From the NCBI GenBank assembly GCA_964560005.1, contig CAZLKB010000004.1:76112-140111 (forward strand): a stretch of DNA of 64,000 nucleotides. The letters are read 5' to 3'. Positions within the stretch are counted from its first letter, which is position 1. Each line of letters opens with the position of its first letter. Positions 6,171 through 62,285 of the stretch are shown here, piece after piece. The notes under the pieces are model-generated. The model saw only the letters and a program-made list of their open reading frames with translations. It had not been told where the DNA came from and did no database searches. Position numbers and translations under genes: made by a program. This stretch comes from an uncultured Gammaproteobacteria bacterium. Its GTDB lineage: Bacteria > Patescibacteriota > Patescibacteriia > Patescibacteriales > GWC2-42-12.

Positions 6171-7061
6171 TTATCTAAAAACCGTAAATAATTTTAACCA
6201 ATCCTCAACCGATAATTCCTGGGCTCTAATTTTTCCGTTAAAACCGGCATTCTCGATGATACTTTGCGCTTCAGACTGCTCCATTTTCAACCCGGCGGCT
6301 AAATTATTTTTTAACATTTTCCGCCTTGAGCTAAAACCAAACTTTACCAGCCTAAAAAAATCTTTCTCTCTATTCTTTCCCCCTTGATACCCGCCCGACT
6401 GAACAGTCGTTCGGGCGGGAAGGGGGTGAGGGGGATTAATTTTTATCTTCACAATCGCCGAATCCACTTCTGGCTGCGGCCAGAAATATTCTTTTGGCAC
6501 CAACCGGACAATTTCTGCCTTGGCGTAAAACTGCACTGACACCGAAAGCAAACTCATCTTCCCGGGCTTGGCAGTAATCCTTTCCGCCACTTCTTTTTGC
6601 AGCATCAGCACCATTAACTCGGGTTTATTTTCTGCTTCCAAAAACTTCCTCAAAAAAATTGAAGTAATATTATAGGGTAAGTTTGCAACAATTTTAAAAT
6701 TGGATAATTGAAAATTGTTTGAAAATTGATAATTGAAAATTGAAAATTTCAATATATCTTCATTCACCACCTCCACATTTTTTATACTCTTTGCTGTTAA
6801 GCCGATCTGCAGAACTTCCGCCAATCTGTCATCCAACTCTACAGCCACTACCCGCCCGGCGTGAACCGCCAGTTTGGCGGTCATGAAACCCAGGCCGGGC
6901 CCGACCTCCAAAACCGTATCACTAGGCTTTAAATCCGCCGCCGCCACTATCTGGTCATAGATTTCTTCCCTAATTAAAAAATTCTGCCCTTTTGAACGGG
7001 CAGGCTTGATGTTATAAAGGCGGCAGAGTTCCTTGGTTTTTTCCAATAGGTCTGTATGCAT
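6171..7061 (-). CDS. rsmA: 16S rRNA (adenine1518/1519-N6)-dimethyltransferase with two repeat-derived inserts
   Basis: 'KGQNFL', the SAM site 'VLEVGPGLGFMT', 'ANLPYNI' and 'FSSRRKML'. Extra segments are 'SIFNYQFSNNFQLSNF' (nt 6690-6755) and 'PPHPLPARTTVQSGGYQGGK' (nt 6379-6434). Confidence 0.85.
   Translation of the reverse strand: MHTDLLEKTKELCRLYNIKPARSKGQNFLIREEIYDQIVAAADLKPSDTVLEVGPGLGFMTAKLAVHAGRVVAVELDDRLAEVLQIGLTAKSIKNVEVVNEDILKFSIFNYQFSNNFQLSNFKIVANLPYNITSIFLRKFLEAENKPELMVLMLQKEVAERITAKPGKMSLLSVSVQFYAKAEIVRLVPKEYFWPQPEVDSAIVKIKINPPHPLPARTTVQSGGYQGGKNREKDFFRLVKFGFSSRRKMLKNNLAAGLKMEQSEAQSIIENAGFNGKIRAQELSVEDWLKLFTVFR
6379..6434. repeat. GC-rich hairpin element in frame inside rsmA
   Basis: CCCCC...CCCGCCCGAC-TGAACAGTCG-TTCGGGCGGG...GGGGGTGAGGGGG. 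The architecture matches the intergenic G/C-run hairpins. Confidence 0.7.
6690..6755. repeat. Family B (TGAAAATT) word repeat in frame inside rsmA
   Basis: ATTGGATAATTGAAAATTGTTTGAAAATTGATAATTGAAAATTGAAAATTTC, the same words as the intergenic family B modules. Confidence 0.75.
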
Positions 7062-15619: not shown

Positions 15620-15710
15620 GTCATTGCGGGCTTGACCCGCAATCCAGAAACTTTTTTCAAACACTAGAATCTGGATTCCGGCTCGCCTTCGGCTTTAAGG
15701 CCGGAATGAC
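15620..15710. repeat. GTCATT...AATGAC-bounded GC-rich composite hairpin element
   Basis: GTCATTGCGGG-CTTGA-CCCGCAAT, TCCAGA..TCTGGA and ATTCCGGC..GCCGGAAT hairpins. The terminal AATGAC supplies a spurious ATG for porG. Confidence 0.8.
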
Positions 15711-15720
15711 AAATAACCAT

Positions 15721-16260: not shown

Positions 16261-16262
16261 CT

Positions 16263-16535
16263 ATGAAAATACCAATTAATGTACGGCCAAATACAACTTT
16301 AGCTAATAAAACCGGGGCTTGGCGCACGCTCAAACCGAAATTCCTGCATGATAAGTGCGCCGCCTGCGGCGTCTGCGCCAGAGTCTGCCCCGAAGGTATT
16401 ATTTATCAGACCGACGAGGCCAACGGCAGCGGTAAAAAATATTTTGAATGTGATTTATCTTATTGTAAAGGCTGCGGCTTATGCGCTATTGAATGCCCGT
16501 TTAAGGCGATCGTAATGGAGCTAGACCAGAAATAA
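16263..16535 (+). CDS. porD: Pyruvate:ferredoxin oxidoreductase delta subunit (2x[4Fe-4S])
   Basis: Two ferredoxin motifs, 'CAACGVCARVCP' and 'CKGCGLCAIECP'. It starts 2 nt after porG. Confidence 0.85.
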   Translation: MKIPINVRPNTTLANKTGAWRTLKPKFLHDKCAACGVCARVCPEGIIYQTDEANGSGKKYFECDLSYCKGCGLCAIECPFKAIVMELDQK

Positions 16536-16689
16536 AATTTTCAATTTTCAAGTACCAATTTTCAATGAATTTTCAATTTACAATTTACAATTTACAATGA
16601 AAACTTTTTCTTTGTTTGAAAATTAATTCATTGGAACTTCATTGAAAATTGGGATTTGAAAATTTATTGATATTTAACTTTACATTTTT
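16536..16689. repeat. AT-rich palindromic module, family B (AATTTTCA / TGAAAATT words)
   Basis: AATTTTCAATTTTCAAGTACCAATTTTCAATGAATTTTCAATTTACAATTT... is mirrored by ...TTCATTGAAAATTGGGATTTGAAAATTT. It ends in TTTAACTTTACATTTTT directly before the porA ATG. Confidence 0.85.
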
Positions 16690-17931: not shown

Positions 17932-18067
17932 ATTAATTTTCAATTTACAATTTTCAATGAATCTACAATTAATTAATTTTCAAACAAATTTTTTGTAGCT
18001 GTTTGAAAATTTAAACATTAAATCATTGAACATTGTTAGAAAATTGAAAATTGAAAATTGAAAATTT
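17932..18067. repeat. Family B palindromic module
   Basis: AATTTTCAATTTACAATTTTCAATGAA... is mirrored by ...GAAAATTGAAAATTGAAAATTGAAAATTT. It forms the left border of the block inserted in the por operon. Confidence 0.85.
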
Positions 18068-18661
18068 ATGCTTAAGTCTTTCCCCAAAATATTAATTATC
18101 GCCTTTCTCTCAATTTTTATTATCCAATCATTCTGTTTAATTTTATTGTTAACTTTACCCCTGGCTAGCCAGGCAGCCGAAATTAAATTCATACCGCAAG
18201 TCGGCATTCCTAATTCTGAATTTGACGCGGGTAAAGGTTACACTTTTGTTAAAGATGACTCTACCGCGCCGATTGCTAAATATATTAAAGCCATTTATCA
18301 ATACGGTATCGGCATTGTCGGCATCTTGGCCGCCGTGGTCTTAATGTACGGCGGCGTGCTCTGGATCGTGGCCGGCGGCAACGCCTCGCAAGTCGGCGAA
18401 GCTAAAGCCTGGATCGGCGCCGCCCTGACCGGCCTGATTTTAGCCCTGACTTCTTATATGATTTTAAATACAATTAACCCCGCGCTGGTGAATTTGCAGA
18501 CTACGCCGGTACCGGGGGTGAAAGAAGCGCCTGCTACTGATAAGGGCTGTTGTATAACGCCAGATGCTACAAACGAAAATAACACCGAGGACGAATGTAA
18601 GTCAAAGGCTGGCGCTACCCAGGATTATGACTGGAGTGAAATAATGTGCCCTATAACATAA
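18068..18661 (+). CDS. VirB2/TrbC-like (CPR 'T4SS pilin'-like) membrane protein with a Cys-rich C-terminal tail
   Basis: 197 aa. Signal peptide, then 'YIKAIYQYGIGIVGILAAVVLMYGGVLWIVAGGNASQVGEAKAWIGAALTGLILALTSYMILNTI', which is two hydrophobic helices joined by a short polar loop. The tail is 'CCITPDA..ECKS..IMC'. Confidence 0.55.
   Translation: MLKSFPKILIIAFLSIFIIQSFCLILLLTLPLASQAAEIKFIPQVGIPNSEFDAGKGYTFVKDDSTAPIAKYIKAIYQYGIGIVGILAAVVLMYGGVLWIVAGGNASQVGEAKAWIGAALTGLILALTSYMILNTINPALVNLQTTPVPGVKEAPATDKGCCITPDATNENNTEDECKSKAGATQDYDWSEIMCPIT
18281..18504 (+). repeat. 224-bp segment 100% identical to 19187-19410
   Basis: Read base by base, from TATATTAAAGCCATTTATCAATACGG to AATTTGCAGACTAC. The flanks are unrelated. 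Confidence 0.95.
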
Positions 18662-18844
18662 CAATCTTATTAATTTATAATAAAATATTAATTACTTACT
18701 TTTCCAATCACGCCGAGAATAATTTTACATTCTAAAAAACATAAAATAAGTTTTTATAAAAACCGGTTGGAGTGGCTATAGCTATGCCGAAAAAATTTGG
18801 TAGAAAAACCGGACTCATAACTATACCCACCAATAATAAAATTT

Positions 18845-19744
18845 ATGTTTAAATTAATTTCCAAAATTGTTGTTATAATTTTTCTTTCAATCTTATTTTT
18901 TCAAATCAATACAACATATGCCGCAAATGAATGCGTCTGGGCGTATAAAATTAACGGCCTATGCAGTGCACAGGGTCTAGGTTATGATGTAGCTGATAAC
19001 AGTTGCTCTAATGTCAGTAAACCCCTGGGTTGCGCGGGTGGTGCCAATTTTTCTTGTAAATGTTGCTGTACAACAAAGTCCGAGTCATCATCCGCTTCAA
19101 AAACTGGAATTAACTTTAAGCCTCAAGTTGAGGGGCTGACTTATAATTTTAACAATTCCGATACTACTACCGGCAATATCGCCAACTATATTAAAGCCAT
19201 TTATCAATACGGTATCGGCATTGTCGGCATCTTGGCCGCCGTGGTCTTAATGTACGGCGGCGTGCTCTGGATCGTGGCCGGCGGCAACGCCTCGCAAGTC
19301 GGCGAAGCTAAAGCCTGGATCGGCGCCGCCCTGACCGGCCTGATTTTAGCCCTGACTTCTTATATGATTTTAAATACAATTAACCCCGCGCTGGTGAATT
19401 TGCAGACTACCAGTGTGCCGGGGGTGACAGAAATGGCAACTGGTAGTTGCACTACTCCTGCAGATTTGGATACAGGAAACGTTACCTGTACAGATAACGT
19501 TTTAAAAGAAAATTGTAAATATAACTTCGCAAAAGGTGAAACGTGTCCTCAGGCGTGCTGTCTTTGGGGAAAATTTGGAACAAGAGATCTTTGGAATGGT
19601 TGCTTTGCTTCAAAAAATTTAATTGAAAGTGATTGCAAAAGAACTGGTGGGTCTGATGCATTATATATACCTAACGCTGCAAATATCGCGTGTCAAATTG
19701 ATAAATTGAATAGCAGTATATATACTGGATGTACAAAAAAATAA
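18845..19744 (+). CDS. VirB2/TrbC-like pilin paralog with Cys-rich N- and C-terminal ectodomains
   Basis: 299 aa with the same hairpin core as 18068-18661. The N-terminal part is 'ECVWAYKINGLCSAQ..CSNVSKPLGCAGGANFSCKCCC' and the C-terminal domain carries about 11 Cys. Confidence 0.55.
   Translation: MFKLISKIVVIIFLSILFFQINTTYAANECVWAYKINGLCSAQGLGYDVADNSCSNVSKPLGCAGGANFSCKCCCTTKSESSSASKTGINFKPQVEGLTYNFNNSDTTTGNIANYIKAIYQYGIGIVGILAAVVLMYGGVLWIVAGGNASQVGEAKAWIGAALTGLILALTSYMILNTINPALVNLQTTSVPGVTEMATGSCTTPADLDTGNVTCTDNVLKENCKYNFAKGETCPQACCLWGKFGTRDLWNGCFASKNLIESDCKRTGGSDALYIPNAANIACQIDKLNSSIYTGCTKK
19187..19410 (+). repeat. 224-bp segment 100% identical to 18281-18504
   Basis: See the paired feature at 18281-18504. 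Confidence 0.95.
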
Positions 19745-19745
19745 T

Positions 19746-19861
19746 TATGCTATACTTTACTAAATACGCTGACCCGCCTACACTAAAGCTACCGCGGGTA
19801 AAAAATAAATTTATCTTGAATATAACTTATAATTTATGCTCTACTTTACTAAATACGCTGA
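19746..19861 (+). repeat. 27-bp direct duplication of the start of the next gene, flanking a GC hairpin
   Basis: TATGCTATACTTTACTAAATACGCTGA (19746-19772) against TATGCTCTACTTTACTAAATACGCTGA (19835-19861). Between them lies ACCCGC-N16-GCGGGT. Confidence 0.85.
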
Positions 19862-20051
19862 AAATAAATTTGATATCCTAAACAAGCATAAAGTTTTTTT
19901 TACGCGAGAACAGGTTGAAGACGCTGTGGCCACGCCGGACAAACCGGGCAGAAAAGCCGGATTTCTAACAATTAAAAAGGATAATATTAAAGTTATTTAT
20001 AAAAAAGAGGCTGGAGTGATTAAAATAATCACTTTTTATCCAGTTAAATAA
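19836..20051 (+). CDS. DUF4258-like small protein (putative toxin component)
   Basis: 71 aa. The pattern 'F.KYA..K...... ...V..A...PD...... ...IKVIYKKEAGVIKIITFYP' resembles the DUF4258 family. Confidence 0.5.
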   Translation: MLYFTKYAENKFDILNKHKVFFTREQVEDAVATPDKPGRKAGFLTIKKDNIKVIYKKEAGVIKIITFYPVK

Positions 20052-20167
20052 TCCGAATACTACAATTGATAAGCGAATACTACGAATAAAATGTTTAAGG
20101 TAAAAATTAGGTGAATAGTTTTTGTAGTATTTGGATATCATTTGTAGTATTCGGATTATAATATTAT
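20052..20167. repeat. AT-rich palindromic module (GAATACTAC words)
   Basis: AATCCGAATACTACAA ... TTGTAGTATTCGGATT is a perfect 16-bp inverted repeat, with further inner word copies. Confidence 0.85.
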
Positions 20168-20377
20168 ATGCAATACGACGCTGAAACCAATATTTTAAGC
20201 TGGGAAATAACCAAAGATCCAATTGACCGCTGTTTGGAGCTCGGCAATTTTATTATCCACTTGTCAAAAGGAAAAAAACCGGTTTTAATTGAAGTACTAA
20301 ACGCCTCAAAGTTCGTGGGGCAGATGGACAAAATAAAACTTGAGAGTATAAAAAAACAGATGATGGAAACGAACTAA
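20168..20377 (+). CDS. DUF2283-like small protein (putative antitoxin component)
   Basis: 69 aa. 'MQYDAETNILSWEI...PVLIEVLNASKF' matches the DUF2283 pattern (YD.E.D.L.. .....IEIL.AS). Confidence 0.55.
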   Translation: MQYDAETNILSWEITKDPIDRCLELGNFIIHLSKGKKPVLIEVLNASKFVGQMDKIKLESIKKQMMETN

Positions 20378-20546
20378 CTAATTTTCAATTTTCAATTTCT
20401 AAACAATTTCCAATGTTAAAATTATTCAATTTTTTAAACAGTCGCAATATATTAGTTTGAAAATTAGAGCATTAAGTCATTAAAAATTGTTTGAAAATTG
20501 AAAATTGGGATTTGAAAATTAATAAATTTGGATAAAAAAGTAAAGT
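20378..20546. repeat. Family B palindromic module
   Basis: AATTTTCAATTTTCAATTTC... is mirrored by ...TTGTTTGAAAATTGAAAATTGGGATTTGAAAATT. It shares GAAAATTGGGATTTGAAAATT with 16536-16689 and forms the right border of the block inserted in the por operon. Confidence 0.85.
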
Positions 20547-21497
20547 ATGAATAATATAATAACAGTCAAAAAATCATCTGATTCTAAAAAAACCCTCCTC
20601 TCCCCCGGCCATAGGGGTTGCGCCGGCTGCGGCCAGATGATCGCGGCTCGGCTGGTAGTCGACGCGCTCGGACCCAATACTATTATTGCCAACGCCACCG
20701 GTTGTTTGGAAGTCGTCACTACGGCTTATCCGGAAAGCTCCTGGGGCATGCCCTGGGTGCATTCGCTTTTTGAAAATGCCTCCGCCGTGGCCAGCGGAAT
20801 TAGAGCGGCATTGGATTATAAGGAAAAAAAATCTCCCCAAACCACTCTTGCTAAGGGGGGCGTTAAAGTAGTTGCGCAGGGCGGTGATGGCGGCACTTTT
20901 GATATCGGCTTCGGCTTAATTAGCGGCATGTGGGAACGGGGCGAAAATATTTTATATGTTTGCTACGATAACGAAGGTTATATGAACACCGGGGCTCAAG
21001 CGTCTGCCTCTACTCCTTGGGCGGCCAATACCACCACTACTCCAGCCGGCAGTTCACCTGAATTAGCCGGCATGGGCTCGCATTTTATGAAAAAAAATAT
21101 GCTGGCGATCGCTTTAGCTCATGGCTTAAAATATGTGGCCCAAACCACAGTCGCCTACCCTCTGGATATAGTAAAAAAAGTAAAAAAAGCCATTGCTACA
21201 CCGGGTCCGTCATACCTGCAGATTCTAGTGCCCTGCATCCCGGGCTGGAAGACTGAACCAAAAGACACTATTCAATTAGCTAAATTAGCCGCTCTAACCG
21301 GAATCTACCCGGTTGTGGAATATATTAATGGCCAGCTGTCCGAAGTCGTAAAAAGGCCGGCTGATTATCCTCGAGTTGAAGAATATCTAAAGCCCCAGGG
21401 CCGATTTAAGCATTTATTTCGCGATGAACGCGGTAAAGAGCAAATCGCCTATATCCAAAAATTGGCGGATCAGAATACGAAAAAATATAATTTGTAA
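20547..21497 (+). CDS. porB: Pyruvate:ferredoxin oxidoreductase beta subunit (TPP-binding)
   Basis: 'GHRGCAGCG', 'GGDGGTFDIGF' and 'CYDNEGYMNTG'. An extra 'KKSPQTTLAKGGVK' comes from a CCCC..GGGGGG hairpin at 20835-20860. Confidence 0.9.
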   Translation: MNNIITVKKSSDSKKTLLSPGHRGCAGCGQMIAARLVVDALGPNTIIANATGCLEVVTTAYPESSWGMPWVHSLFENASAVASGIRAALDYKEKKSPQTTLAKGGVKVVAQGGDGGTFDIGFGLISGMWERGENILYVCYDNEGYMNTGAQASASTPWAANTTTTPAGSSPELAGMGSHFMKKNMLAIALAHGLKYVAQTTVAYPLDIVKKVKKAIATPGPSYLQILVPCIPGWKTEPKDTIQLAKLAALTGIYPVVEYINGQLSEVVKRPADYPRVEEYLKPQGRFKHLFRDERGKEQIAYIQKLADQNTKKYNL

Positions 21498-21845: not shown

Positions 21846-24800
21846 TTACTCTTTCACCCGATACCCCGTCCCGGCCGGAATCGGCCGACCAATGATGACA
21901 TTCTCCTTCAGGCCTTCAAGGTGATCAATCTTGCCGGTTACGGCCGCGTCAATTAGAACTCTGGCGGTTTCCTGAAACGACGCCGCCGACAGAAAACTAT
22001 TAGTGGTCAAAGACGATTTGGTGATGCCCAATAATAGCTCCTCGCCCCGAGCTTCTTTTTGACCGGCCGCCCGCGTCTCGTCGTTAGTCTGATCAAAGAT
22101 GGCTTTTTCAACGATTTCTCCGGGCAATAAGACAGTATCTCCCGCGTCGTTAACATAAACCCGAGAAAACATCTGACGCGCGATAATTTCAATATGCTTA
22201 TCGTTCAGGGGCTGGCCTTGGGACGAATAAACATATTGAATTTCTTTAATAATATATTTTTGCGCCGCCAGCTTGTCTCTTAGCTTGTACAGCTGGTGCA
22301 AATCCAGCGAGCCGTCGGTCAACTGATCGCCGATTTTTACTTTCTCGCCGTCTTTAACCCAAATGCCAAAGCCTTTTGGCACAATATATTCCTTGACTTT
22401 TTCCGCTTGACTAACCACTTTTAGGCTTTTATCTTCTAATCTTACTATACCGGCTTTCTTAGCATTAAATACTTTTTTACCGATAGAAAATAATTCGCTA
22501 TTTTTTTCAACCGAAGCGCCGTCTTTAACCAATATTTTCACGGCCTGCTTTTTATTATTTTTATTCTCCAACACCGCTTCTTTCGCCGACTCGTTAAAAT
22601 GATATTTATCTGTTTCCTGCCCCTCATAATATATCTTCAAAATTTTTGATTGCGGATTGGAAATAATCATCTCTCCGCCCTCATTAGCAATGGTTCTTTG
22701 GGCGGTTTCAATCTCAACGGTGCCGGCTACATCAGCGATAAAAGCTTTCTTCTTCGGCGGCCGGCCTTCAAAAATTTCTTCCACCCGGGGAAGCCCCTGG
22801 GTAATATCTTCCTGACCGGCCACGCCTCCGGTGTGGAAAGTTCTCATAGTCAGCTGAGTACCCGGCTCGCCGATTGACTGGGCGGCGATAATCCCAACGG
22901 CTGTGCCGATAGCTACCGGTTTATTATAAGCCAAATCGTAGCCATAGCATTTTGAACAGACGCCGCGATGGACTTTACAGGTTAAAATTGATTTAATTTT
23001 GGCTTGGGTAATATCTTCCTTGGCAATTTTTTCCGCAATCTCTTCAGTAACCAATTCACCGGCTTTGAGCAAAGTTTTACCGGCTTTATTCTTTAAGTCA
23101 GCTGCCAGGTATCTCCCGGTCAAACGCCTCATCATGGTCTCGCCCATGGCTTCGCTTTCTTCTTTAATTATGAGTAGTCCTTCTTTATCGCCGCAGTCGT
23201 CCTTAACTATGATAATATCCTGGGAGACATCAACTAAGCGCCTGGTCAAATAACCAGCGTTGGAGGTTCTAAGAGCAGTATCGGACAAGCCTTTTCTGAC
23301 GCCGTGGGTGGAGATAAAATATTCCAAAACGCTAAAGCCTTTCTTAAAATTCCCTTTAACCGGCAATTCAATAATATCGCCTCCCGGAGAGGTTACTAAG
23401 CCCTTCATGCCTAAAACCTGGGTTAACTGCGCCCAGCTCCCCCGAGCACCAGATTCAATCATGGAATAAACCGGACCGTTTTTAGGCAGATGATTGCGGC
23501 AAATTTCCGTAACTTTTTCTTTTACCGTAGTCCAAAGTTCAATAATTTTACTATAGCGCTCGCTATCGGTTAATAAGCCGTCGCGGTATTGTTCGGCGAT
23601 TTCTTCGGCTTGCTTGGTAGCATTGACAATCATTTGATCTTTCTCGTATAGATGAGGAATATCGTCCATACCCCAAGATAGGCCGCTCTTGGTAATATAT
23701 CGGAAGCTCGTATTCTTAATTTGATCCAATAACTCTATGGTTGTCTGCTCGCCAAAATGCCTTAAACATTCCTTAATCAAATTTTTAAGTTTGCCCTTGC
23801 CTACTGTCTCGTTGACATACCTAAGCTTGACCGGCAAGGCTTCGTTAAAGACTACTCTGCCGACCGAGGTAATAACGGGCTTGCCGTTGATTATGACCCT
23901 GATTTTTTGCTGTAATTTTATATTTTTCAGGTCATAGGATAAAATCGCGTCCTGGGGCGAATAAAAATTCTTTAATTTGGTTTCATCCGCGGTTAAATAA
24001 TCCTGGCCGACATTGGTAATATAAAAAGCTCCCCAGACAATATCTTGATTCGGCGTTACTACCGGGTCGCCGGTGGCCGGCTTTAATAAATTGTGGCTAC
24101 TAAGCATAATGTCGCGGGCTTCGGCAATCGCTTCCTCGGTTAAAGGAACGTGAACGGCCATTTGGTCGCCATCAAAGTCAGCATTAAATGCCGTGCAGAC
24201 CAGGGGGTGAATTTGTAAAGCCAAGCCTTCAATTAAAATCGGCCTGAAAGCCTGAATACCTAAACGATGTAAAGTTGGCGCTCGATTTAAAAAGACATAA
24301 GCGCCCTTGACAATATCTTCTAAAATATCCCAAACCTCCTCTTTGCCGGAGTCAATAAAACGAGAAGCGCTTCTAACATTATGAACGATTTCTTTATTAA
24401 TCAGCTTGGAAATAATAAAAGGCTTAAACAATTCCAAGGCCATGCGCTTAGGCAAGCCGCATTGGTCCAGTTTTAAATTAGGATTAACCACAATAACGCT
24501 CCGGCCGGAATAATCTACTCTCTTGCCGAGTAAGTTCTGCCTAAACCGGCCTTGCTTGCCTTTCAAGGAATCGGCCAACGACTTTAGCATTCTTTTTTGT
24601 CCGGTTGAAGCCACCACGGTCTTGCCGTGCCTGATAGAATTATCAACCAAGGCGTCAACCGCTTCCTGGAGCATTCTTTTTTCATTGCGGCAGATTACTT
24701 CAGGCGCGTTTAAATCAATCAGCTGTTTCAAACGGTTATTGCGATTAATGATACGGCGGTACAAATCGTTTAAATCAGAGGTGGCAAACCGGCCGCCGTC

Positions 24801-25787
24801 CAGCGGTACCATAGGCCTAAGATCCGGCGGTATCACCGGTACGACGGTTAGAATCATCCATTCCGGCCTTAAATGATTAGCTTTTAGGCTCTTTAACAAC
24901 TTTAAACGCCTAATCAATTTATCTTTTTTAGAATCAATCGCCGAGGTCAGATCTTTTTCCAGCTGGGGAATTAATTTGTCATAATCAATCTTTTCCAGTA
25001 ACTTCCTAACGGCGTCAGCGCCGATATCGGCCGTAAAAATGTGGCCGTATTTTAAGCTTAAATTTTGATAAACGCTTTCGGATATAACGGTTAATGGCTT
25101 CAGGTCTTTTAATTCTTTCTGTGCCTGATCAAAGGCTTGCTCTAAGTTGTGCAGTTTATCGTTTTTTATTTTTTCCAAAGCTTCTATTTCCGCGCTCAAT
25201 ACGCTTTCAATTTCAAATTCACTCTTGCCTTGCGTTAATAATTTGCCTTTCTTATTCCTAATTTCTCCGACCTGCCTTTGCCAATCCGCTTCAATAGACT
25301 TTCTTTTATTCTTATATTCTTGCTTGATTTGCTCAATCGTCTGGAGGCGCAAATCTTCATTGACATCGGAAATTATAAAACTGGCGAAATAAACCACTTT
25401 CTCAAGAGCTTGCATGGATAAATCCATAATTAAACCGATTTTTGAAGAGGTGCCTCGTAAAAACCAAATATGAGTAACCGGCGCTTCCAGCTTAATATGA
25501 CCCATCCGTTCGCGGCGCACCAGGCTTCTGGTCACTTCCACTCCGCATTTATCGCAGATTATGCCCTTATAGCGGATCTTTTTATATTTACCGCAATAGC
25601 ACTCCCAATCTTTGGATGGACCGAAAATGCGCTCGCAAAATAAGCCGTCTTTTTCCGGCTTTTGCGTTCGGTAATTAATAGTTTCCGGCCTGATCACTTC
25701 GCCATGCGACCAGCTTAAAATAACTTCCGGTGAAGCTAATTTTAATTTAATGGCGTCAAAATCGGTGGTCTTTATAGGATTTAACAT
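21846..25787 (-). CDS. rpoC: DNA-directed RNA polymerase subunit beta'
   Basis: 1313 aa. Zinc motif 'CYCGKYKKIRYKGIICDKCGV', the catalytic 'NADFDGDQM', and the bridge-helix and trigger-loop regions. Confidence 0.97.
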   Translation of the reverse strand: MLNPIKTTDFDAIKLKLASPEVILSWSHGEVIRPETINYRTQKPEKDGLFCERIFGPSKDWECYCGKYKKIRYKGIICDKCGVEVTRSLVRRERMGHIKLEAPVTHIWFLRGTSSKIGLIMDLSMQALEKVVYFASFIISDVNEDLRLQTIEQIKQEYKNKRKSIEADWQRQVGEIRNKKGKLLTQGKSEFEIESVLSAEIEALEKIKNDKLHNLEQAFDQAQKELKDLKPLTVISESVYQNLSLKYGHIFTADIGADAVRKLLEKIDYDKLIPQLEKDLTSAIDSKKDKLIRRLKLLKSLKANHLRPEWMILTVVPVIPPDLRPMVPLDGGRFATSDLNDLYRRIINRNNRLKQLIDLNAPEVICRNEKRMLQEAVDALVDNSIRHGKTVVASTGQKRMLKSLADSLKGKQGRFRQNLLGKRVDYSGRSVIVVNPNLKLDQCGLPKRMALELFKPFIISKLINKEIVHNVRSASRFIDSGKEEVWDILEDIVKGAYVFLNRAPTLHRLGIQAFRPILIEGLALQIHPLVCTAFNADFDGDQMAVHVPLTEEAIAEARDIMLSSHNLLKPATGDPVVTPNQDIVWGAFYITNVGQDYLTADETKLKNFYSPQDAILSYDLKNIKLQQKIRVIINGKPVITSVGRVVFNEALPVKLRYVNETVGKGKLKNLIKECLRHFGEQTTIELLDQIKNTSFRYITKSGLSWGMDDIPHLYEKDQMIVNATKQAEEIAEQYRDGLLTDSERYSKIIELWTTVKEKVTEICRNHLPKNGPVYSMIESGARGSWAQLTQVLGMKGLVTSPGGDIIELPVKGNFKKGFSVLEYFISTHGVRKGLSDTALRTSNAGYLTRRLVDVSQDIIIVKDDCGDKEGLLIIKEESEAMGETMMRRLTGRYLAADLKNKAGKTLLKAGELVTEEIAEKIAKEDITQAKIKSILTCKVHRGVCSKCYGYDLAYNKPVAIGTAVGIIAAQSIGEPGTQLTMRTFHTGGVAGQEDITQGLPRVEEIFEGRPPKKKAFIADVAGTVEIETAQRTIANEGGEMIISNPQSKILKIYYEGQETDKYHFNESAKEAVLENKNNKKQAVKILVKDGASVEKNSELFSIGKKVFNAKKAGIVRLEDKSLKVVSQAEKVKEYIVPKGFGIWVKDGEKVKIGDQLTDGSLDLHQLYKLRDKLAAQKYIIKEIQYVYSSQGQPLNDKHIEIIARQMFSRVYVNDAGDTVLLPGEIVEKAIFDQTNDETRAAGQKEARGEELLLGITKSSLTTNSFLSAASFQETARVLIDAAVTGKIDHLEGLKENVIIGRPIPAGTGYRVKE

Positions 25788-25864
25788 ACTGGTATAATAT
25801 TTAAAATATATTTTAATAAATAAATTAATCTATTTTCCCATCATGTGCTGATTACCTAATTACA

Positions 25865-26004
25865 AATTTTCAATTCTCAATTTCCAATTTTCAAACAATG
25901 ACCAATGAATCAATGACTAAATTTTCAAAAAAAATGCTGTTGAATTAATTGAAAATTATAAAATTGAAAATTCATTGAAAATTGATAATTGAAAATTGAA
26001 AATT
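25865..26004. repeat. 140-bp family B palindromic element, dispersed copy 1 (between rpoB and rpoC)
   Basis: Roughly nine-tenths identical by eye to 48465-48604. Shared core: TTTTCAAACAATGACCAATGAATCAATGACTAAATT...TTAATTGAAAATTAT...ATTGAAAATTCATTGAAAATTG. Confidence 0.9.
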
Positions 26005-26012
26005 ATTCTTCC

Positions 26013-29000
26013 CTATTCTTTCCTCTCCACTTCCGGCTTAATTTCAATCGCCCGGCCATACTTTTCTTCCGCCGGCTTATCATCCCCCTGGCGTTCCAAA
26101 TTAATCACTTGATTGCCTTGCATAAGCTCAACATCCAAACACAGCCCCTTTAATTCTCTGACCAAAACATTGAATGATTCGGGAACATTTATTTTTCTAA
26201 TCGGTTCTCCTTTAATGATAGACTCATAGGCTTTACTGCGGCCCGGAACATCGTCTGATTTAATGGTTAAAATCTCCTGCAAACAATGAGCCGCGCCATA
26301 AGCTTCCAGCGCCCAAACTTCCATTTCGCCGAAGCGTTGGCCACCGAATTGAGCTTTGCCGCCTAACGGCTGCTGGGTAATCAAAGAATACGGGCCGATA
26401 GAGCGCTGGTGCATTTTGTCTTCCACCATATGATTCAGCTTCAACATATATTGATAGCCAACCACTATTCTGTTGTCATAGCTTTCTCCGGTCTTGCCGT
26501 CGTACAGCGTGGCCTTGCCGTCGGTCGACAAGCCGGCTTTTTTAAGCTCCTCCTTAATCTGCTCTTCGCTGATGCCGTTTAACGACGGCACCGCGACTTT
26601 GTAATTTAATTTTTTGGCGGCCGAACCTAAGTGGGTCTCTAAAAGCTGTCCCAAGTTCATTCTGGAAATTACTCCCAAGGCTGATAAAATTATATCAATC
26701 GGCGTGCCATCGGCTTGATAAGGCATATTCTCCACCGGCACAATCTTAGAAATAACGCCCTTATTGCCGTGGCGGCCGGCCATTTTATCGCCGATCTGAA
26801 TTTTTCTCAAATTGGCTACCGTTACCTGAATTGACTGGATAACTCCGGCGGACAGCTTATCGCCGTCTTCTCGGGAAAAAATCTTGATATCAACCACTTT
26901 GCCATGTTCGCCATGTTCTAAATAAAGAGATGAATCCCTGACATCTTTAGCTTTCTCGCCGAAAATCGCTCTTAAAAGTTTTTCTTCGGCCGATAATTCG
27001 GTTTCGCCCTTGGGCGTGATTTTTCCGACTAAAATATCGCCCGAAGATACTTCGGCGCCGATACGGACGATGCCGCGTTCATCCAAGTCTTTTAACTTTT
27101 CTTCGCTGATATTGGGTATGTCGTTAGTGATCAGCTCCGGGCCGAGCTTGGTATCTCGGACATCAATCGTATAATGCTCTATATGAATGGAAGAGTAAGT
27201 ATCTTCTTTAATTAACCGTTCGGAAATAATTATGGCGTCTTCGTAGTTAAAGCCTTCCCAGCTCATAAAGGCGACTAAGATATTCCGCCCGAGCGACAAC
27301 TCGCCGTGATCTATCGCCGAACTATCGGTTAAAACATCGCCGGCCTTTACCAGATCGCCACGATTGACAATCGGGCGCTGGTTTATACAGGTTGAGGCGT
27401 TGGAGCGCAAAAATTTATTTAAAACATATTTGCTGATTTTTCCGGTTTTGTCTTTTAATTCAATTGAACCGCCGTCAACTTTAACCACTTCGGCTTCGGC
27501 TTCGGCTAAAATAACATGGCCCGAATCGATGCCGGCCCGCGCTTCCACGCCGGTGCCGACGATCGGCGCTTCGGCCGTAATTAAAGGTACGGCCTGCCGC
27601 TGCATGTTGGTTCCCATTAAAGCCCTAATGCCGTCGTTATGCTCCAAAAATGGAATCAAAGAAGTAGCCACGGAAACAATCTGGTTAGGCGCTACGCCGA
27701 TTAAATCTATATTTTCCACTAACTCCATGGCCGGCTGACCGTATTTCCTGGCTTCGGCTTTCTCCACCGTAAAATGGCCGGCCTGATCAATCGGCGTGGT
27801 TGAGGAAGTGGTGATATATTTTTCTTCTTCAAAAGCGTCAAGATAAATAATTTTATCGGTCACAACCGGTACGATCGGTATGGTGACATGACCCATCTTT
27901 TCTTTAAGTTCGCGAGCCGTCTTTTTATCTATTACTTCACCGGCTTTAATGATTAATTTGCCTTTGCTGAGCGACCCGCCCTGAGCAGAGCCGAAGGGAG
28001 TCGAAGCGCCGGTTTTTTGGCCGGATGAAGAATCTTTCTCTACCGGCTCCCCTTTGACGCTTAATTTAAAATCAAGGGGGTCAGCCGACGCCTTGCTATG
28101 AATTTCATAAATATCTTGGCGGGCGGTTTTTCCTTCGGTAATTTCAACTTTATTATCAACATCATGCAAAACCACCTGGTACGGCGCTTCAATAAAACCG
28201 TAGCTGTTAAGCCGAGCGTAGCTGGATAAATGCCCGACCAGGCCGATATTAGGGCCTTCCGGAGTAGCAATCGGACAAATACGGCTATAGTGTGTAGTGT
28301 GGACATCGCGAACCTCAAAGCCCGCCCGTTCGCGCGTCAGCCCGCCCGGACCCATAGCTGAAAGCCTTCTCTTATGCTCCAGCTCGGCCACCGGATTGGT
28401 CTGATCCATGAACTGCGAAAGCTGGCTGGACATAAAAAATTCTTTCACTACGCTGATAACCGGCCGGGCGTTAATCAGCTTATTCGGCGTTAAGCTGTCT
28501 ATCTCCATTATACTCATTCTGTCTCTGATAATTCTTTCCATGCGAGCCAAACCGACTCTGAATTTATTTTGAATTAATTCCCCGACGGCTCTAACCCGGC
28601 GGTTGCCTAAGTGATCAATATCGTCTTCTTTCTCCTGAGTAATGGTCAATCTGATTACTTCTTTAACGATTAAAACCAAGTCCTCTCTTCTTAAAACTCT
28701 ATTGGCTTTGTTATTGGAAACATCCAAGCCGAATTTTTTATTCATTTTATAACGCCCAACCCGATCAAAGTCATAACGGTCAAAACGAAAAAACATGGAA
28801 TGAATCAGCTGCCTGGCATTATCGGTCGTAGCCAAATCTCCCGGCCTGATTCTTTTATAAACTTCTTTTAAGCCTTCGGCCTCATTTTTGGCCGCATCTT
28901 TAGCTAAAGTAGCCTCAATAAAACTAAGTATATTTTCATTGCCGTTGGCGCCTAAAATTTCCTCGCCCTTGCCCGACTCGGAAAAAAGCTGCTTAATCTC

Positions 29001-29603
29001 TTCGTCCGTGGAATAGCCGAAAGCGCGGAATAAAGAAGTGATAGCGACTTTTCTTTTGCGGTCTATCCTAACCCAAATAACATTATTCATGTCGGTTTCA
29101 ATCTCCAGCCAAGCGCCGCGGTTGGGTATGACTTTAGCGCCGTAATATTTTTTCCCCTTGATGAATTCCGAGGTAAAAATTACGCCGGCGCTTCTGATTA
29201 ATTGCGAAACCACGACTCTTTCAATGCCATTAACAATAAAAGTTCCATTGTTGGTCATTAAAGGAAAATCGCCTAAAAATACTTCTTGAACCACCGTCTG
29301 GCCGGTTTTTTTATTGGCCAGCCTGGCTTTAACTCTTAAGGAAGCTTCATAGGTAATATTTTTCGCCTTGCTTTCGCTTTCGTTAAATTTCGGCTCGTCT
29401 AAATAATAATCTTCCAAATATAACTCAAGATCCCGGCCGATAAAATCGGTAATCGGCGAAATTTCTTGAAATAGGTCGGCCAAGCCTTCGCGTAAAAACC
29501 AATTATAAGAGTCTTTCTGGATTTCAATTAAATCCGGCAAATCAATCGCCGCCATGGTTTCGTTAAAAAATTTCCGCGCCGATGATTTTATTCTCATGGT
29601 CAT
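26013..29603 (-). CDS. rpoB: DNA-directed RNA polymerase subunit beta
   Basis: 1196 aa. 'GRHGNKGV', 'NMQRQAVP' and 'SRMNLGQ'. A lineage-specific insert of ~95 aa follows 'GFIEAPYQVV' and includes the low-complexity stretch 'KDSSSGQKTGASTPFGSAQGGSLSKGK'. Confidence 0.97.
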   Translation of the reverse strand: MTMRIKSSARKFFNETMAAIDLPDLIEIQKDSYNWFLREGLADLFQEISPITDFIGRDLELYLEDYYLDEPKFNESESKAKNITYEASLRVKARLANKKTGQTVVQEVFLGDFPLMTNNGTFIVNGIERVVVSQLIRSAGVIFTSEFIKGKKYYGAKVIPNRGAWLEIETDMNNVIWVRIDRKRKVAITSLFRAFGYSTDEEIKQLFSESGKGEEILGANGNENILSFIEATLAKDAAKNEAEGLKEVYKRIRPGDLATTDNARQLIHSMFFRFDRYDFDRVGRYKMNKKFGLDVSNNKANRVLRREDLVLIVKEVIRLTITQEKEDDIDHLGNRRVRAVGELIQNKFRVGLARMERIIRDRMSIMEIDSLTPNKLINARPVISVVKEFFMSSQLSQFMDQTNPVAELEHKRRLSAMGPGGLTRERAGFEVRDVHTTHYSRICPIATPEGPNIGLVGHLSSYARLNSYGFIEAPYQVVLHDVDNKVEITEGKTARQDIYEIHSKASADPLDFKLSVKGEPVEKDSSSGQKTGASTPFGSAQGGSLSKGKLIIKAGEVIDKKTARELKEKMGHVTIPIVPVVTDKIIYLDAFEEEKYITTSSTTPIDQAGHFTVEKAEARKYGQPAMELVENIDLIGVAPNQIVSVATSLIPFLEHNDGIRALMGTNMQRQAVPLITAEAPIVGTGVEARAGIDSGHVILAEAEAEVVKVDGGSIELKDKTGKISKYVLNKFLRSNASTCINQRPIVNRGDLVKAGDVLTDSSAIDHGELSLGRNILVAFMSWEGFNYEDAIIISERLIKEDTYSSIHIEHYTIDVRDTKLGPELITNDIPNISEEKLKDLDERGIVRIGAEVSSGDILVGKITPKGETELSAEEKLLRAIFGEKAKDVRDSSLYLEHGEHGKVVDIKIFSREDGDKLSAGVIQSIQVTVANLRKIQIGDKMAGRHGNKGVISKIVPVENMPYQADGTPIDIILSALGVISRMNLGQLLETHLGSAAKKLNYKVAVPSLNGISEEQIKEELKKAGLSTDGKATLYDGKTGESYDNRIVVGYQYMLKLNHMVEDKMHQRSIGPYSLITQQPLGGKAQFGGQRFGEMEVWALEAYGAAHCLQEILTIKSDDVPGRSKAYESIIKGEPIRKINVPESFNVLVRELKGLCLDVELMQGNQVINLERQGDDKPAEEKYGRAIEIKPEVERKE

Positions 29604-29611: not shown

Positions 29612-29706
29612 AGGGATACGAATTACAAATTTAATACAAATTTACAAATATTTTATAAACTCTATTTAAAGTATTTGTAAATTCGTAACAGATTTGTAAT
29701 TCATAT
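29612..29706. repeat. AT-rich palindromic module, family D (TACAAAT / ATTTGTA words)
   Basis: ACGAATTACAAATTTAATACAAATTTACAAATA is mirrored by TATTTGTAAATTCGTAACAGATTTGTAATTC. It lies directly upstream of the rpoB start. Confidence 0.8.
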
Positions 29707-31665: not shown

Positions 31666-31787
31666 GACTAATAATGTAAAATTTAAAAATCAAAATGGAA
31701 AATGACAATTAAAAATGAAAAATGTCTGAATTTATTATTTTAAATTTTACATTGTCATTTTACACTTTGAGATTTACATTTTTAATT
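31666..31787. repeat. Family A palindromic module
   Basis: ATGTAAAATTTAAAAATCAAAATGGAAAATGACAAT... is mirrored by ...ACATTGTCATTTTACACTTTGAGATTTACATTTTT. Confidence 0.85.
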
Positions 31788-32780: not shown

Positions 32781-32792
32781 AGAATTAATATT

Positions 32793-32872
32793 GTCATTCC
32801 GGCCTCCGCCAGCTCGCCTCGCTGGAGCTTTAGCGAAGCGGGCTGGCGGAGAGCCTGCCTACCGGCAGGCAG
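32793..32872. repeat. GTCATTCC-type GC-rich composite hairpin element
   Basis: GTCATTCCGGCCTCCGCCAGC...GCTGGCGGAG and GCCTGCCTACCGGCAGGCAGG hairpins. Confidence 0.75.
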
Positions 32873-32880
32873 GTAAATTA

Positions 32881-32947
32881 GAACAATTAGACATTTTACA
32901 TTTTAAACTTTCATTTTCCATTTTGATATTTTAATTTTAAACTTCCC
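32881..32947. repeat. Family A half-module
   Basis: TTAGACATTTTACATTTTAAACTTTCATTTTCCATTTTGATATTTTAATTTT. Confidence 0.7.
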
Positions 32948-33523: not shown

Positions 33524-33531
33524 AATATTTA

Positions 33532-33610
33532 CCCCACAAATCTACAAATCGACAACAAATAATACAAATACTATTCGTGATATTCGTAGCGAATTTGTAG
33601 CTTTGTGGGG
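33532..33610. repeat. Family D palindromic module
   Basis: CCCCACAAATCTACAAATCG ... CGAATTTGTAGCTTTGTGGGG. Confidence 0.8.
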
Positions 33611-33644
33611 TGATTACGATTAACCGGCTAAAACTATTATTTTA

Positions 33645-41402: not shown

Positions 41403-41420
41403 TGGTTTAAATTATGGTTC

Positions 41421-47585: not shown

Positions 47586-48386
47586 TTACTCGGCGCTGAA
47601 CCTTGAAAGCTGGCCGTTTTTTAAATTTCGCCGATAAATCATGATTAGAAAAATATACATCGCCGCCAGATAAAGCATAGCCAGGACGGCGCCAATAATT
47701 AGATTGGCTAAGAGACCGGGGTCGTGGACGCCGCCGCTTAAAGCGCGCAGACTGTCAAAAACATAAGTGGCCGGGAGAATTTTAGAGACGACTTGAAGCG
47801 GCGCCGGCAAGGTATCCACCGGATAAAACACGCCGACGAAAACCGACATGGCGAAAGGAATAGGCCAGCCCAGCCATTCGGCCGACGGGCCGAAGCGTAA
47901 AATTATGGCCGTCATAAATATTCCCATGGCTACGGCAAAAATAAAAAGTATCATCAAAAAGAGTATGATCAGCAAGCCGATTGTAAAAACATTATAACCA
48001 AAGGCCAGACCGGCCAAGAGAACCATGGCTAAGAAGCCGACCAAGCCGGTAGCCAGGCTGGTTGCCACCAGGCCGGCGACATACTCTTTAACCTCTAGGG
48101 GCGAGGTAAAAAAATTAATAAAATTCTGGGTCCAGATATCTTCTAAAAATGCGGTCATCACACCCTGCATGATCCGGCCTAAAAAATCCCATAAAATAAT
48201 CGCGCCCAAAACCACATTAACGAAGCTGAAAGTCGCGGCGCCGAAAGTGCTTAAGTACTTGCTGATAAAGCCCCAAAGGATGATATCTAGAAACATCCAT
48301 AAAAAAACCGCGATCAAGCGCACCGGGTTGCCCTTTAATAAAAATATCTGGCGGATAAAAATGGCGTAAATTCTGGTTAAGCTCAT
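47586..48386 (-). CDS. ABC-2 type transporter permease
   Basis: 266 aa with six TM helices and typical ABC-2 topology. It pairs with the ATPase gene upstream. Confidence 0.75.
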   Translation of the reverse strand: MSLTRIYAIFIRQIFLLKGNPVRLIAVFLWMFLDIILWGFISKYLSTFGAATFSFVNVVLGAIILWDFLGRIMQGVMTAFLEDIWTQNFINFFTSPLEVKEYVAGLVATSLATGLVGFLAMVLLAGLAFGYNVFTIGLLIILFLMILFIFAVAMGIFMTAIILRFGPSAEWLGWPIPFAMSVFVGVFYPVDTLPAPLQVVSKILPATYVFDSLRALSGGVHDPGLLANLIIGAVLAMLYLAAMYIFLIMIYRRNLKNGQLSRFSAE

Positions 48387-48464
48387 ATATAAGGTTATTT
48401 AATAATTTTTTGTACCAAGATAACGTCTAAAATTTAACCGATCATTAATGTTAAAACTAATTCT

Positions 48465-48604
48465 AATTTTCAATTCTCAATTTTCAATTTTCAAACAATG
48501 ACCAATGAATCAATGACTAAATTCTCAAACAGAAATGCTATTTATTAATTGAAAATTATGACATTGAAAATTCATTGAAAATTGGTACTTGAAAATTGAA
48601 AATT
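48465..48604. repeat. 140-bp family B palindromic element, dispersed copy 2 (between the ABC ATPase and permease genes)
   Basis: See 25865-26004. Confidence 0.9.
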
Positions 48605-48659: not shown

Positions 48660-49406
48660 TTATTTGTTAAAGGTTAACGGCTCCCGCGCCACGGCGATGA
48701 ACAATTCTTCCAAATCCTTTTTACCGTGCTCGGCCGGCAAGGTTTTAGGATCGCCCGATAATAAAATTTTACCATGCGACATAAATAGCACCCGATGACA
48801 GACATCCGTAATCTCCGCCATATTATGCGAAGTCCAAAGTACGGCTGAACCGGTCTCCCGAGCGTAATTTTTTATTTTCTGCCTGACCAGCTGGGCAATA
48901 CTCGGATCTAATGAAGCGGTTGGTTCGTCCAATAGCAATAAATAGGGCTGATTAATCACGGCTTTGGCTAAATTAAGGCGGCTGGTTTCGCCGGAAGATA
49001 AAAGTCCGACCTTGGTTTTGGCAAATTTTTCCAGCTCAAAATCATGTAATAGAACATTGATTCTCTTTTTCAAATCTTTAACGCCGTAGAGCAGGCCGAA
49101 GACATAGAGATTTTGCCTGACTGTTAAGTTGCCGGGCAGATGCGCGTAGACCGCGGCGAAATTGGTCCGCCGGCTCGCCTCGCAATGTTTAGTTTTAATA
49201 TTATTGCACAGAATTTCAATTAATCCGGCGCTGGGCTCCAGGATTCCCAAAACCATATTAATGGTCGTGGTTTTGCCCGCGCCGTTAGGCCCTAAGAGGC
49301 CGACGATTTCTCCGGCTTTGACCGAAAATGAAATATTATTAACGGCTTTTACATCCTTGTATTGCTTTGACAGGTTGCTGATTTTTAAAACTATTTCTTC
49401 GGACAT
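48660..49406 (-). CDS. ABC transporter ATP-binding protein
   Basis: Walker A 'GPNGAGKTT', signature 'LSSGETSRL', Walker B 'LLLLDEPT'. Confidence 0.9.
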   Translation of the reverse strand: MSEEIVLKISNLSKQYKDVKAVNNISFSVKAGEIVGLLGPNGAGKTTTINMVLGILEPSAGLIEILCNNIKTKHCEASRRTNFAAVYAHLPGNLTVRQNLYVFGLLYGVKDLKKRINVLLHDFELEKFAKTKVGLLSSGETSRLNLAKAVINQPYLLLLDEPTASLDPSIAQLVRQKIKNYARETGSAVLWTSHNMAEITDVCHRVLFMSHGKILLSGDPKTLPAEHGKKDLEELFIAVAREPLTFNK

Positions 49407-51348: not shown

Positions 51349-51354
51349 GATATT

Positions 51355-54894: not shown

Positions 54895-55000
54895 AGGATT
54901 AATTTTCAATTTACAATTTTCAAACAAAGTCGCTATTTATCTCATTGATAATTTAGTCATTGAAAATTCATTGAAAATAAAAATTTGAAAATTTAAAATT
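54895..55000. repeat. Family B palindromic module
   Basis: AATTTTCAATTTACAATTTTCAAACAA... is mirrored by ...GTCATTGAAAATTCATTGAAAATAAAAATTTGAAAATTT. Confidence 0.85.
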
Positions 55001-62171: not shown

Positions 62172-62285
62172 AATAAATTTTGAAGAACGAATTTTGAATT
62201 TTGAATCAATTTTGAATGAAATAATTATTAAACATTCAAAATTAAAAATTCAATCAAAATTCTAAATTCAAAATTAAAAATTTTC
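62172..62285. repeat. AT-rich palindromic module (GAATTTTGA / TCAAAATTC words)
   Basis: GAATTTTGAATTTTGAATCAATTTTGAATG is mirrored by CATTCAAAATTAAAAATTCAATCAAAATTCTAAATTCAAAATT. Confidence 0.85.

Follow-up and report, generated by a model that had tools for sequence, protein, structure and literature searches.

In Proteobacteria, REP elements (repetitive extragenic palindromes) and REPINs, which are REP doublets that form hairpins, are mobilized by RAYT, a Y1 HUH transposase whose gene usually has REPs on its flanks. Bacterial MITEs, for example RUP, Correia, Nezha and ERIC, are non-autonomous, intergenic and 100-150 bp long. Cyanobacteria carry heptamer repeats of the STRR (short tandemly repeated repetitive) type. 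The TAACTGA repeats of Beggiatoaceae, cyanobacteria and Bacteroidetes are intergenic, often end ∼1 nt ahead of a start codon, and occupy spacers that are shorter and repeat-free in close relatives (PMC4679880). In Nostoc 7120, (TTTTGAA)3 and eight units of GAC(C/T)AAT adjoin start codons (bioRxiv 10.1101/2022.06.06.494920). TIGR arrays, found with Tas/Nop proteins in CPR and phages, have a unit of ∼36 nt in which two repeats of 8-12 nt alternate and are set apart by 9-nt spacers; 5-15 such units stand beside a Nop-domain gene (PMC12045711). Our literature searches found no account in CPR of elements like those described here.

The window analyzed, meaning the whole stretch of 64 kb, comes from a Falkowbacteria-like Patescibacterium. 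Its closest RpoB matches were MAGs labelled Patescibacteria or Candidatus Falkowbacteria, with best-segment identities of 88% for L002, 85% for L003 and L031, and 84% for L047. A sequence-only reading of the window had pointed to two 140-bp copies of an imperfect palindrome, one between rpoB and rpoC and the other between an ABC transporter ATPase gene and its permease gene, differing at about a dozen positions. Both were found where it had placed them (E4 and E5, Table 1), and its count agrees with our global alignment: 130 of 141 columns (92%) were identical, the others being 9 mismatches and 2 gap columns. Weaker similarity extended past the element for ∼25 nt toward lower coordinates (3′ on the gene-sense strand). 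Both copies are indeed imperfect palindromes; their arms, 42-43 nt long, show 79-81% complementarity. Folded as gene-sense RNA, E4 and E5 reached minimum free energies of -36.5 and -37.3 kcal/mol (z-scores against dinucleotide shuffles, -4.95 and -4.10), compared with -31.8 and -28.4 kcal/mol for the antisense strands. The two spacers measured 225 nt (25788-26012) and 273 nt (48387-48659), as had been reported, and Pfam identified the flanking genes.

A match of this kind is not due to chance, since the 16-mer TTGAAAATTGAAAATT, with at most two mismatches, found 35 matches where 0.61 were expected. Nor is it an assembly artefact; the genes at both junctions are adjacent to each other in all relatives. 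Exact-protein look-up with the ATPase returned one 2.9-kb Logan contig only, and look-ups with the permease and with rpoC matched no record. The Logan contig stops 31 nt inside E5, as expected at a repeat. We term family A the dispersed, non-coding repeat, palindromic over its whole length, of which E4 and E5 are recent paralogous copies.

The sequence-only reading had counted two copies; there are at least six to seven in the window. We located these by searching with TTGAAAATTGAAAATT, by reading the matched places, and by profile searches. Besides at least six members, we found in the window a variant built on AATTTTG and a half-copy inside ksgA (Table 1); the six to seven copies are 100-141 nt long and contain no ORF. 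They separate porD from porA, porA from the next gene, a small ORF from porB, rpoB from rpoC, and the ABC ATPase from its permease, pairs that without them would be closely linked. Among the junctions hit are that of rpoB and rpoC, a universally linked pair, and those between subunit genes of pyruvate:ferredoxin oxidoreductase. Identity to E4 and E5 is 70-77% for the other members, and the 5′ arm of E1 is identical to that of E5 over 42 nt, with variant heptads in matching order.

Arms of family A are tandem arrays of 7-nt units: AATTTTC and variants on the 5′ side, GAAAATT on the 3′ side, and CAATGAC or CAATGAA nearer the center. Identity at a lag of 7 was 0.45-0.55 in the six family-A members and 0.58 in the A7 variant, compared with about 0.25-0.30 at most other lags. 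Over family A and the family B described below, it was 0.45-0.58 at a lag of 7 and 0.22-0.35 at most other lags, and AT-rich control spacers gave flat profiles. This periodic build of the palindrome had not been part of the sequence-only reading.

Table 1. Family-A and related elements of the window, with the tails and flanking genes of E4 and E5.
Feature	Position	Strand	Context or basis
Half-array, one A-type arm	6684..6748	-	In frame within ksgA/RrnaAD ORF, peptide KFSIFNYQFSNNFQLSNF
Family-A copy E1	16536..16667	+	Directly after porD (ferredoxin subunit) stop; porA start 22 nt on
Family-A copy E2	17935..18066	+	3 nt after porA stop; next ATG 1 nt on
Family-A copy E3	20380..20520	+	Between small conserved ORF and porB
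rpoC, downstream flank of E4	21846..25787	-	Pfam
E4 3′ tail, non-palindromic, partly common with E5 (TGTAATTAGGTAATCAG...)	25840..25864	-	Extended alignment; partly kept in L002 spacer
Family-A heptad palindrome copy E4	25865..26004	-	8 nt after rpoB stop; rpoC start 77 nt further
rpoB, upstream flank of E4	26013..29603	-	Pfam
ABC-2 permease (ABC2_membrane), downstream flank of E5	47586..48386	-	Pfam
E5 3′ tail, homologous to E4 tail	48440..48464	-	Alignment
Family-A heptad palindrome copy E5	48465..48604	-	55 nt after ABC ATPase stop; permease start 78 nt further
ABC transporter ATPase (ABC_tran), upstream flank of E5	48660..49406	-	Pfam
Family-A copy E6, shorter	54901..55000	-	Directly after metallophosphoesterase stop; junction with inositol monophosphatase
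Variant A7, AATTTTG / TTTTGAA heptads	62175..62283	-	Fills LemA-M48 peptidase gap: 2 nt after stop, start 3 nt on

At least three families of periodic palindromes besides A occupy other spacers of the window. Family B, of AAAATGN heptads, has five copies and a half-copy; family C, of ATAAAGTT octads, has three copies; and further palindromes have an 11-nt period. Altogether a periodic palindrome was present in 18 of the 40 co-directional spacers and in none of the 7 convergent or divergent ones. In most elements the hairpin base lies 0-14 nt past the upstream stop codon and 0-13 nt ahead of the downstream start codon. Although CPR genomes are considered streamlined, these palindromes make up ∼2.07 kb of the ∼8.0 kb of intergenic DNA in the window, about a quarter, which bears on how operons, spacers and assembly breaks are read in CPR MAGs. 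Rfam and tRNA scans of the window gave no matches.

Corresponding junctions were compared in relatives. The rpoB-rpoC spacer, 225 nt in the window, is 41 nt in L003, 28 nt in L031, and 20-60 nt (about 35) in most of ∼70 relatives. At the ATPase-permease junction the 273 nt of the window correspond to 14 nt in the MAG that gave L002, the closest relative, and to 20, 62 and 70 nt elsewhere (14-20 nt at L109 and L110); these orthologous spacers of 14-70 nt lack the element. The porD-porA spacer (154 nt) and the spacer between porA and the next gene (136 nt) are 4 and 1 nt in L003, and the FemAB-Mur ligase spacer (122 nt) is 3 and 18 nt in relatives. The rpoB-rpoC spacer of L003 aligns to the final ∼43 nt of the window spacer. 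Window spacers carry extra non-element sequence, and so filled and empty sites align uncleanly. The sequence-only reading had proposed that mobility should show itself as empty sites in relatives, and vertical conservation as orthologous spacers just as long and alignable around two copies only; we found empty sites, with 28-41 nt at rpoB-rpoC and 14 nt at ATPase-permease in the closest relative, several further copies, and short orthologous spacers. These genome comparisons show that family-A members were inserted at stop-start junctions whose length in relatives is only 1-40 nt.

Insertions differ in age. L002 has at rpoB-rpoC a truncated ortholog of E4, consisting of both element ends and the common tail, so E4 is older than the split between the window and L002; the E5 site is empty in the MAG that gave L002, so E5 is younger than E4. 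Elsewhere a junction has been colonized independently, by an unrelated element. Different heptad or octad palindromes were found between rpoB and rpoC in L047, L006, L036, L025, L011 and L030, and the FemAB-Mur ligase junction carries family B in the window and family A in L008. At the E3 site, L047 has an orthologous A-type element, and L002 and L003 have palindromes of other heptads. Alignment of E3 with its L047 ortholog left 38 of 143 columns gapped, mostly through indels of several to 14 nt; these fall within and between the heptad arrays. A heptad palindrome was found upstream of porB in every relative, with heptads differing from one to another; L031 has just two direct AATTTCT units there. 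The porB-upstream series could equally reflect turnover in situ as repeated insertion. Some relatives, such as L004, have pure direct heptamer arrays. Structured spacers are thus gained, lost and replaced fast between close relatives.

Family-A sequence is conserved beyond what neutral sites show. E4 and an element of L008, a distant relative, at a non-orthologous site agree at 92 of 100 aligned nucleotides and in the order of their variant heptads. By comparison, identity at 4-fold sites of rpoB was 0.41 between the window and L008, which is saturated, and 0.53 with the closest relative. Family-A sequence has thus persisted between genomes in which neutral sites are saturated, and it is either constrained or exchanged between lineages.

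Family-A elements resemble REP and REPIN elements in several respects. They too are short, non-coding, extragenic and palindromic, with many copies between co-directional genes and within transcription units; different species have conserved the family sequence, the element itself encloses no transposase, and the whole forms a hairpin of ∼100-140 nt from two inverted arms, as in REPINs. The arms differ in being tandem heptads, where a REP is a single sequence of ∼25-35 nt. GTAG or CTAC is not conserved at the element ends, whose termini are AATTTTC...GAAAATT, in contrast to the GTAG-type 5′ motif of REPs, and no RAYT was seen among the 48 ORFs of the 64-kb window. The host differs as well, being a Patescibacterium of the ∼1-Mb class in which several unrelated families coexist.

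The sequence-only reading had spoken of a MITE-like mobile hairpin, and this held in part. The elements are multi-copy, non-coding hairpins, and both focal copies are inserted relative to relatives; like MITEs they are non-autonomous, 100-150 bp long and intergenic, fold as a hairpin over the whole element, are insertion-polymorphic with respect to relatives, and coincide with assembly breaks. The usual hallmarks of MITEs, however, were not recovered. No target-site duplication was recognized at the flanks of E4 and E5, where AT-richness makes short duplications uninformative; a "TA" on both sides of E2 is possible, but chance alone would give it in DNA so rich in AT. The inverted repeat takes up the entire element, with no terminal inverted repeat separate from the whole-length palindrome and none matching a known IS, no parent IS is visible in the window, and the internal 7-nt periodicity of family A is not a MITE feature. 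The remark that the window shows no transposase proved correct, the 48 ORFs including no transposase, integrase, HUH nuclease, Cas or Nop/Tas protein. With no GTAG motif, RAYT or target-site duplication found, we do not claim membership in either the REP/REPIN or the MITE class.

STRR-type and other heptamer repeats share a different set of features with family A: tandem 7-nt units, an intergenic position often few nt from a start codon, high variability between close relatives, and short repeat-free spacers that are common in relatives. CAATGAC of the family-A inner arm is a cyclic permutation of the Nostoc heptamer GACCAAT, and TTTTGAA of A7 is Nostoc Hept_L. The main unit, AATTTTC, was not among the described heptamers that we verified. 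What sets family A apart is the pairing of two inverted complementary arms into one long hairpin, the dispersed copies of defined families with variant heptads in a fixed order, and the host phylum. The heptamer repeats of Beggiatoa are nearly all direct (inverted in 1 of 170), whereas family A consists of inverted pairs. Even so, the elements tie CPR to the unexplained STRR-type heptamer repeats of cyanobacteria, Beggiatoaceae and Bacteroidetes. TIGR arrays resemble them as short-period repeat arrays in Patescibacteria, some variants having palindromic stems, and differ from these lone hairpins scattered among housekeeping genes; the 7-nt period, the lack of spacers, and the lack of a Nop/Tas protein among the 48 ORFs rule out a TIGR array. 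A CRISPR-like array was considered and rejected.

We also scanned metagenomes with a 22-mer core. Exact matches were all in high-GC contigs, in which CAATGAC arrays face TTGGTCATTGGGATTTGG arrays, and the scan returned no further copies from the organism of the window. A scan of viral contigs with a 19-mer arm gave only chance matches within coding sequence.

We think it probable that these are dispersed, DNA-level, REP- or MITE-like palindromic repeats with STRR-like heptad arms, copied into stop-start junctions, reshaped there by 7-nt slippage, and tolerated in operons through fold-back. The elements would spread as DNA, through recombination or a copy-and-insert process. We infer the mobilizing step in its entirety, since the 48 ORFs include no transposase, integrase or HUH nuclease, and its machinery would lie outside the window; the mobilizer may act in trans, as RAYT does for REP and REPIN elements, or may be a host replication or repair activity on hairpins. 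Once in place, arms would gain and lose 7-nt units by slippage, and hairpin-templated correction would hold the two arms complementary. Operons such as rpoBC and porGDAB would tolerate the elements because the transcript of a copy folds back and includes no terminator. Effects on mRNA, if any, as an RNase III target, through 3′-end protection or through altered coupling, would be secondary consequences and not the reason for the elements. If a dedicated mobilizing or heptad-templating activity exists, a genome of ∼1 Mb is a favorable place in which to find it.

A different account starts from the RNA: the elements would be selected intercistronic hairpins, with stems of ∼20-60 bp, serving as RNase III sites, as stabilizers of upstream 3′ ends, or in coupling or uncoupling translation, and their dispersal would be secondary. 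REP elements stabilize upstream mRNA in E. coli, and RNase III cuts the early mRNAs of phage T7 at intercistronic hairpins, so there are precedents. The placement of hairpin bases so close to stop and start codons would suit such a role, as would the restriction to co-directional junctions and the conservation of sequence across saturated lineages; E4 and E5 themselves, however, sit 77-78 nt from the downstream start codon. The same operons run in close relatives with spacers of 1-40 nt, which indicates that the hairpin is dispensable. We also considered whether the hairpin might bridge a split Shine-Dalgarno sequence; the GGAG motifs at the ends of upstream genes are fixed by conserved codons and lie too far from the ATG in empty-site relatives.

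E4 and E5 fold more stably as the sense strand, and so do 25 of the 37 periodic hairpins (Wilcoxon p = 0.09), yet G.U was not in excess over A.C on that strand, with counts of 229 vs 225 in all hairpins, 61 vs 54 in periodic hairpins, and 37 vs 28 in the window; none of these asymmetries was significant among symmetrically scored hairpins. Five of six independent family-A members share an orientation relative to transcription, although they lie on both DNA strands, as scored with a profile made from E4 and E5 only. Family B is found in both orientations, and its copy B4 folds far better antisense (-37.3 kcal/mol) than sense (-23.4 kcal/mol), so a general transcription-coupled orientation is not supported. 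Covariation in the family-A alignment, with 21 conserved outer pairs and 1 compensatory pair, is uninformative because the heptads themselves are conserved. There is no robust evidence for strand-specific RNA selection on the elements. The sense-fold bias and the five-of-six orientation of family A leave room for an RNA-level role. As the primary explanation, selected RNA hairpins seem to us unlikely, if worth serious attention.

A bolder proposal goes further. Intergenic heptad palindromes in Patescibacteria, the STRR repeats of cyanobacteria and the arrays of high-GC bacteria, which have identical heptads such as CAATGAC and TTTTGAA, might belong to one cross-phylum class of self-propagating elements, made and homogenized in 7-nt steps and set at stop-start junctions where the hairpin would mediate processing or coupling of cistrons. 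We offer this speculatively and think it unlikely to be right. Were it true, a ∼1-Mb CPR genome, with its few candidate genes, would be the simplest system for a question dating from 1990.

The elements could instead have arisen in place, without transposition. Heptad slippage would begin in short AT-rich spacers, repair templated by the hairpin would make one arm a copy of the other, and gene conversion, or convergence on a few favored heptads, would account for the similarity of copies. Several of the observations given above would fit: the porB-upstream palindromes with their differing heptads and the two direct AATTTCT units of L031, the short "mini" E4 of L002, the predominance of indels between E3 and its L047 ortholog, the pure direct arrays of L004, and the recurrence of CAATGAC and TTTTGAA in unrelated high-GC metagenome contigs and in Nostoc. 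Independent growth does not explain why the 92% identity of E4 and E5 spans a non-repetitive center and a non-palindromic tail, why the variant heptads of E1 and E5 come in one order over 42 nt, or why E4 and the L008 copy share heptad order at non-orthologous sites. The shared center and tail and the shared heptad order require that whole units were copied. An origin wholly in place is accordingly a distinctly doubtful prospect.

The strict 7-nt periodicity might otherwise mark the arrays as multimeric sites, in ssRNA, ssDNA or duplex, for a protein that reads seven nucleotides; candidates would be nucleoid proteins and OB-fold proteins of the cold-shock or S1 type. Such binding has been a speculation for the heptamer repeats of cyanobacteria and Beggiatoa. 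Arrays end few nt from start codons, as do those of Beggiatoaceae (TAACTGA; PMC4679880) and Nostoc (bioRxiv 10.1101/2022.06.06.494920), heptad sequences are conserved across lineages, and the window encodes an S1-domain protein and a Translin-family protein. Heptads vary so much with family and lineage (AATTTTC, AAAATGN, AATTACG, CAAAACN and others), however, that a single specific binder is unlikely; complementary array pairs would be double-stranded, and no protein is linked to the arrays. We would put very little weight on such a binder.

That the elements are the Rho-independent terminators of this genome can be set aside almost completely, for although the hairpins stand directly past stop codons, they have neither a GC-rich stem nor a U-tract, a scan found 0 terminator-like sites in 25600-26200, ordinary terminators with a GC stem and T-run occur elsewhere (e.g., 3917-3948, 41523-41549, 43338-43365, 51318-51345, 56841-56865 and 57560-57580), none lies inside the arms of a heptad palindrome, and the elements come between rpoB and rpoC and between the subunits of pyruvate:ferredoxin oxidoreductase. 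The sole overlap was with a GC-rich hairpin (5572-5602) nested in the family-B copy B2. Nesting of elements was seen at B2 (5545-5707) and again in a composite element of L002.

The heptad palindromes of family A share the window with a second dispersed palindrome family, B, whose unit is the heptad AAAATGN. Relative to its neighbouring genes, the family is found in either orientation; two of its copies (B3 and B4) are 84% identical, and the relative's contig L017 also has a member, at 10839-10964. The three copies of a third family, C, share 70–73% identity. Among the three additional intergenic palindromes, a clear ~11-nt period was seen only in the one at 29616-29706. We also observed hairpins nested within hairpins: the family-B copy B2 (5545-5707) contains a GC-rich hairpin with a T-run at 5572-5602, and a composite element in another relative (L002:7859-8059) has three nested hairpins, one of them CCTGCCTGCCGGCAGGCAGG.

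Repeats, palindromes and intervening ORFs (window positions unless a contig is named)
Feature	Position	Unit, motif or setting
Family-B copies	1270-1395, 5545-5707, 31673-31787, 53997-54117, 59966-60157	AAAATGN heptads
Family-B half copy	32875-32940	
Family-C copies	38353-38416, 58183-58255, 61184-61242	8-nt units ATAAAGTT
Additional intergenic palindromes	29616-29706, 33526-33616, 6065-6141	TACAAATT- or CGAATT-type units
GC-rich hairpin repeats	~51350-51380, 62895-62950, 32790-32860, 56710-56770; L106:3760-4000 (relative)	TGTCATTCC(C/G)G...CGGGAATCC
~50-nt structured sequence, two copies	~41420-41470, ~45640-45690	3' of minus-strand genes
Two T4SS-pilin-like ORFs	18068-19744	between porA and porB

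Heptamer arrays extend to other genomes. In the relative's contig L004, ~15 CGC(A/G)TAA heptamers follow one another without interruption at 1269-1377, so pure direct heptamer arrays occur in the clade too. Six metagenome contigs of GC 0.53–0.62 (L083, L084, L086, L087, L090 and L091), whose hosts are high-GC bacteria, carry CAATGAC/CAATGAA heptads facing TTGGTCATTGGGATTTGG arrays, as hairpins; family A has the same heptads in its inner arm. The L091 hairpin overlaps the 3' end of a 483-aa ORF (7751-9202) and lies directly upstream of a 331-aa ORF (9234-10229), which we take, from reading the sequence, to be putative murF and mraY, respectively.

At window 15706-21497, which holds the genes for pyruvate:ferredoxin oxidoreductase, porG-porD-porA is split from porB by the two pilin-like ORFs and an 802-nt stretch, which contains a small conserved ORF ending C-terminally in KQMMETN (KQIMETN in relatives). 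The interruption of the por genes is also present in relatives.

No tRNA genes were found in the 64-kb window, nor any Rfam family at the gathering threshold. The GC-rich hairpin repeats recur in the window and in spacers of relatives, and recall Neisseria dRS3 (ATTCCC-N8-GGGAAT). The ~50-nt structured sequence, CCCGTTAAATCCC(G/A)ATCAAG(C/A)TTGGGACGCA(G/A)AGCGTATTTAACGGGG, is ~90% identical between its two copies and had no Rfam match. Between the TspO and permease genes lies a perfect 26-nt inverted repeat, AGTCTTGGTAAAATTTATTTATTTTT (47397-47422 / 47496-47521), enclosing a GC-rich segment of 73 nt.

Heptads were also found within coding sequence. The minus-strand ksgA (RrnaAD) ORF at 6171-7061 includes, in frame, a single arm of an A-type heptad array (6684-6748), which encodes KFSIFNYQFSNNFQLSNF within a variable loop directly ahead of the NLPY motif. 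The leucyl-tRNA synthetase (8904-13046, minus strand) is 1380 aa long; its editing domain and the C-terminal synthetase part are separated by NUDIX and serine-hydrolase (alpha/beta) domains. Translin-family proteins in eukaryotes bind single-stranded nucleic-acid repeats; a gene for a protein of this family is at 57600-58169 on the minus strand, and short tandem repeats are abundant in this genome.
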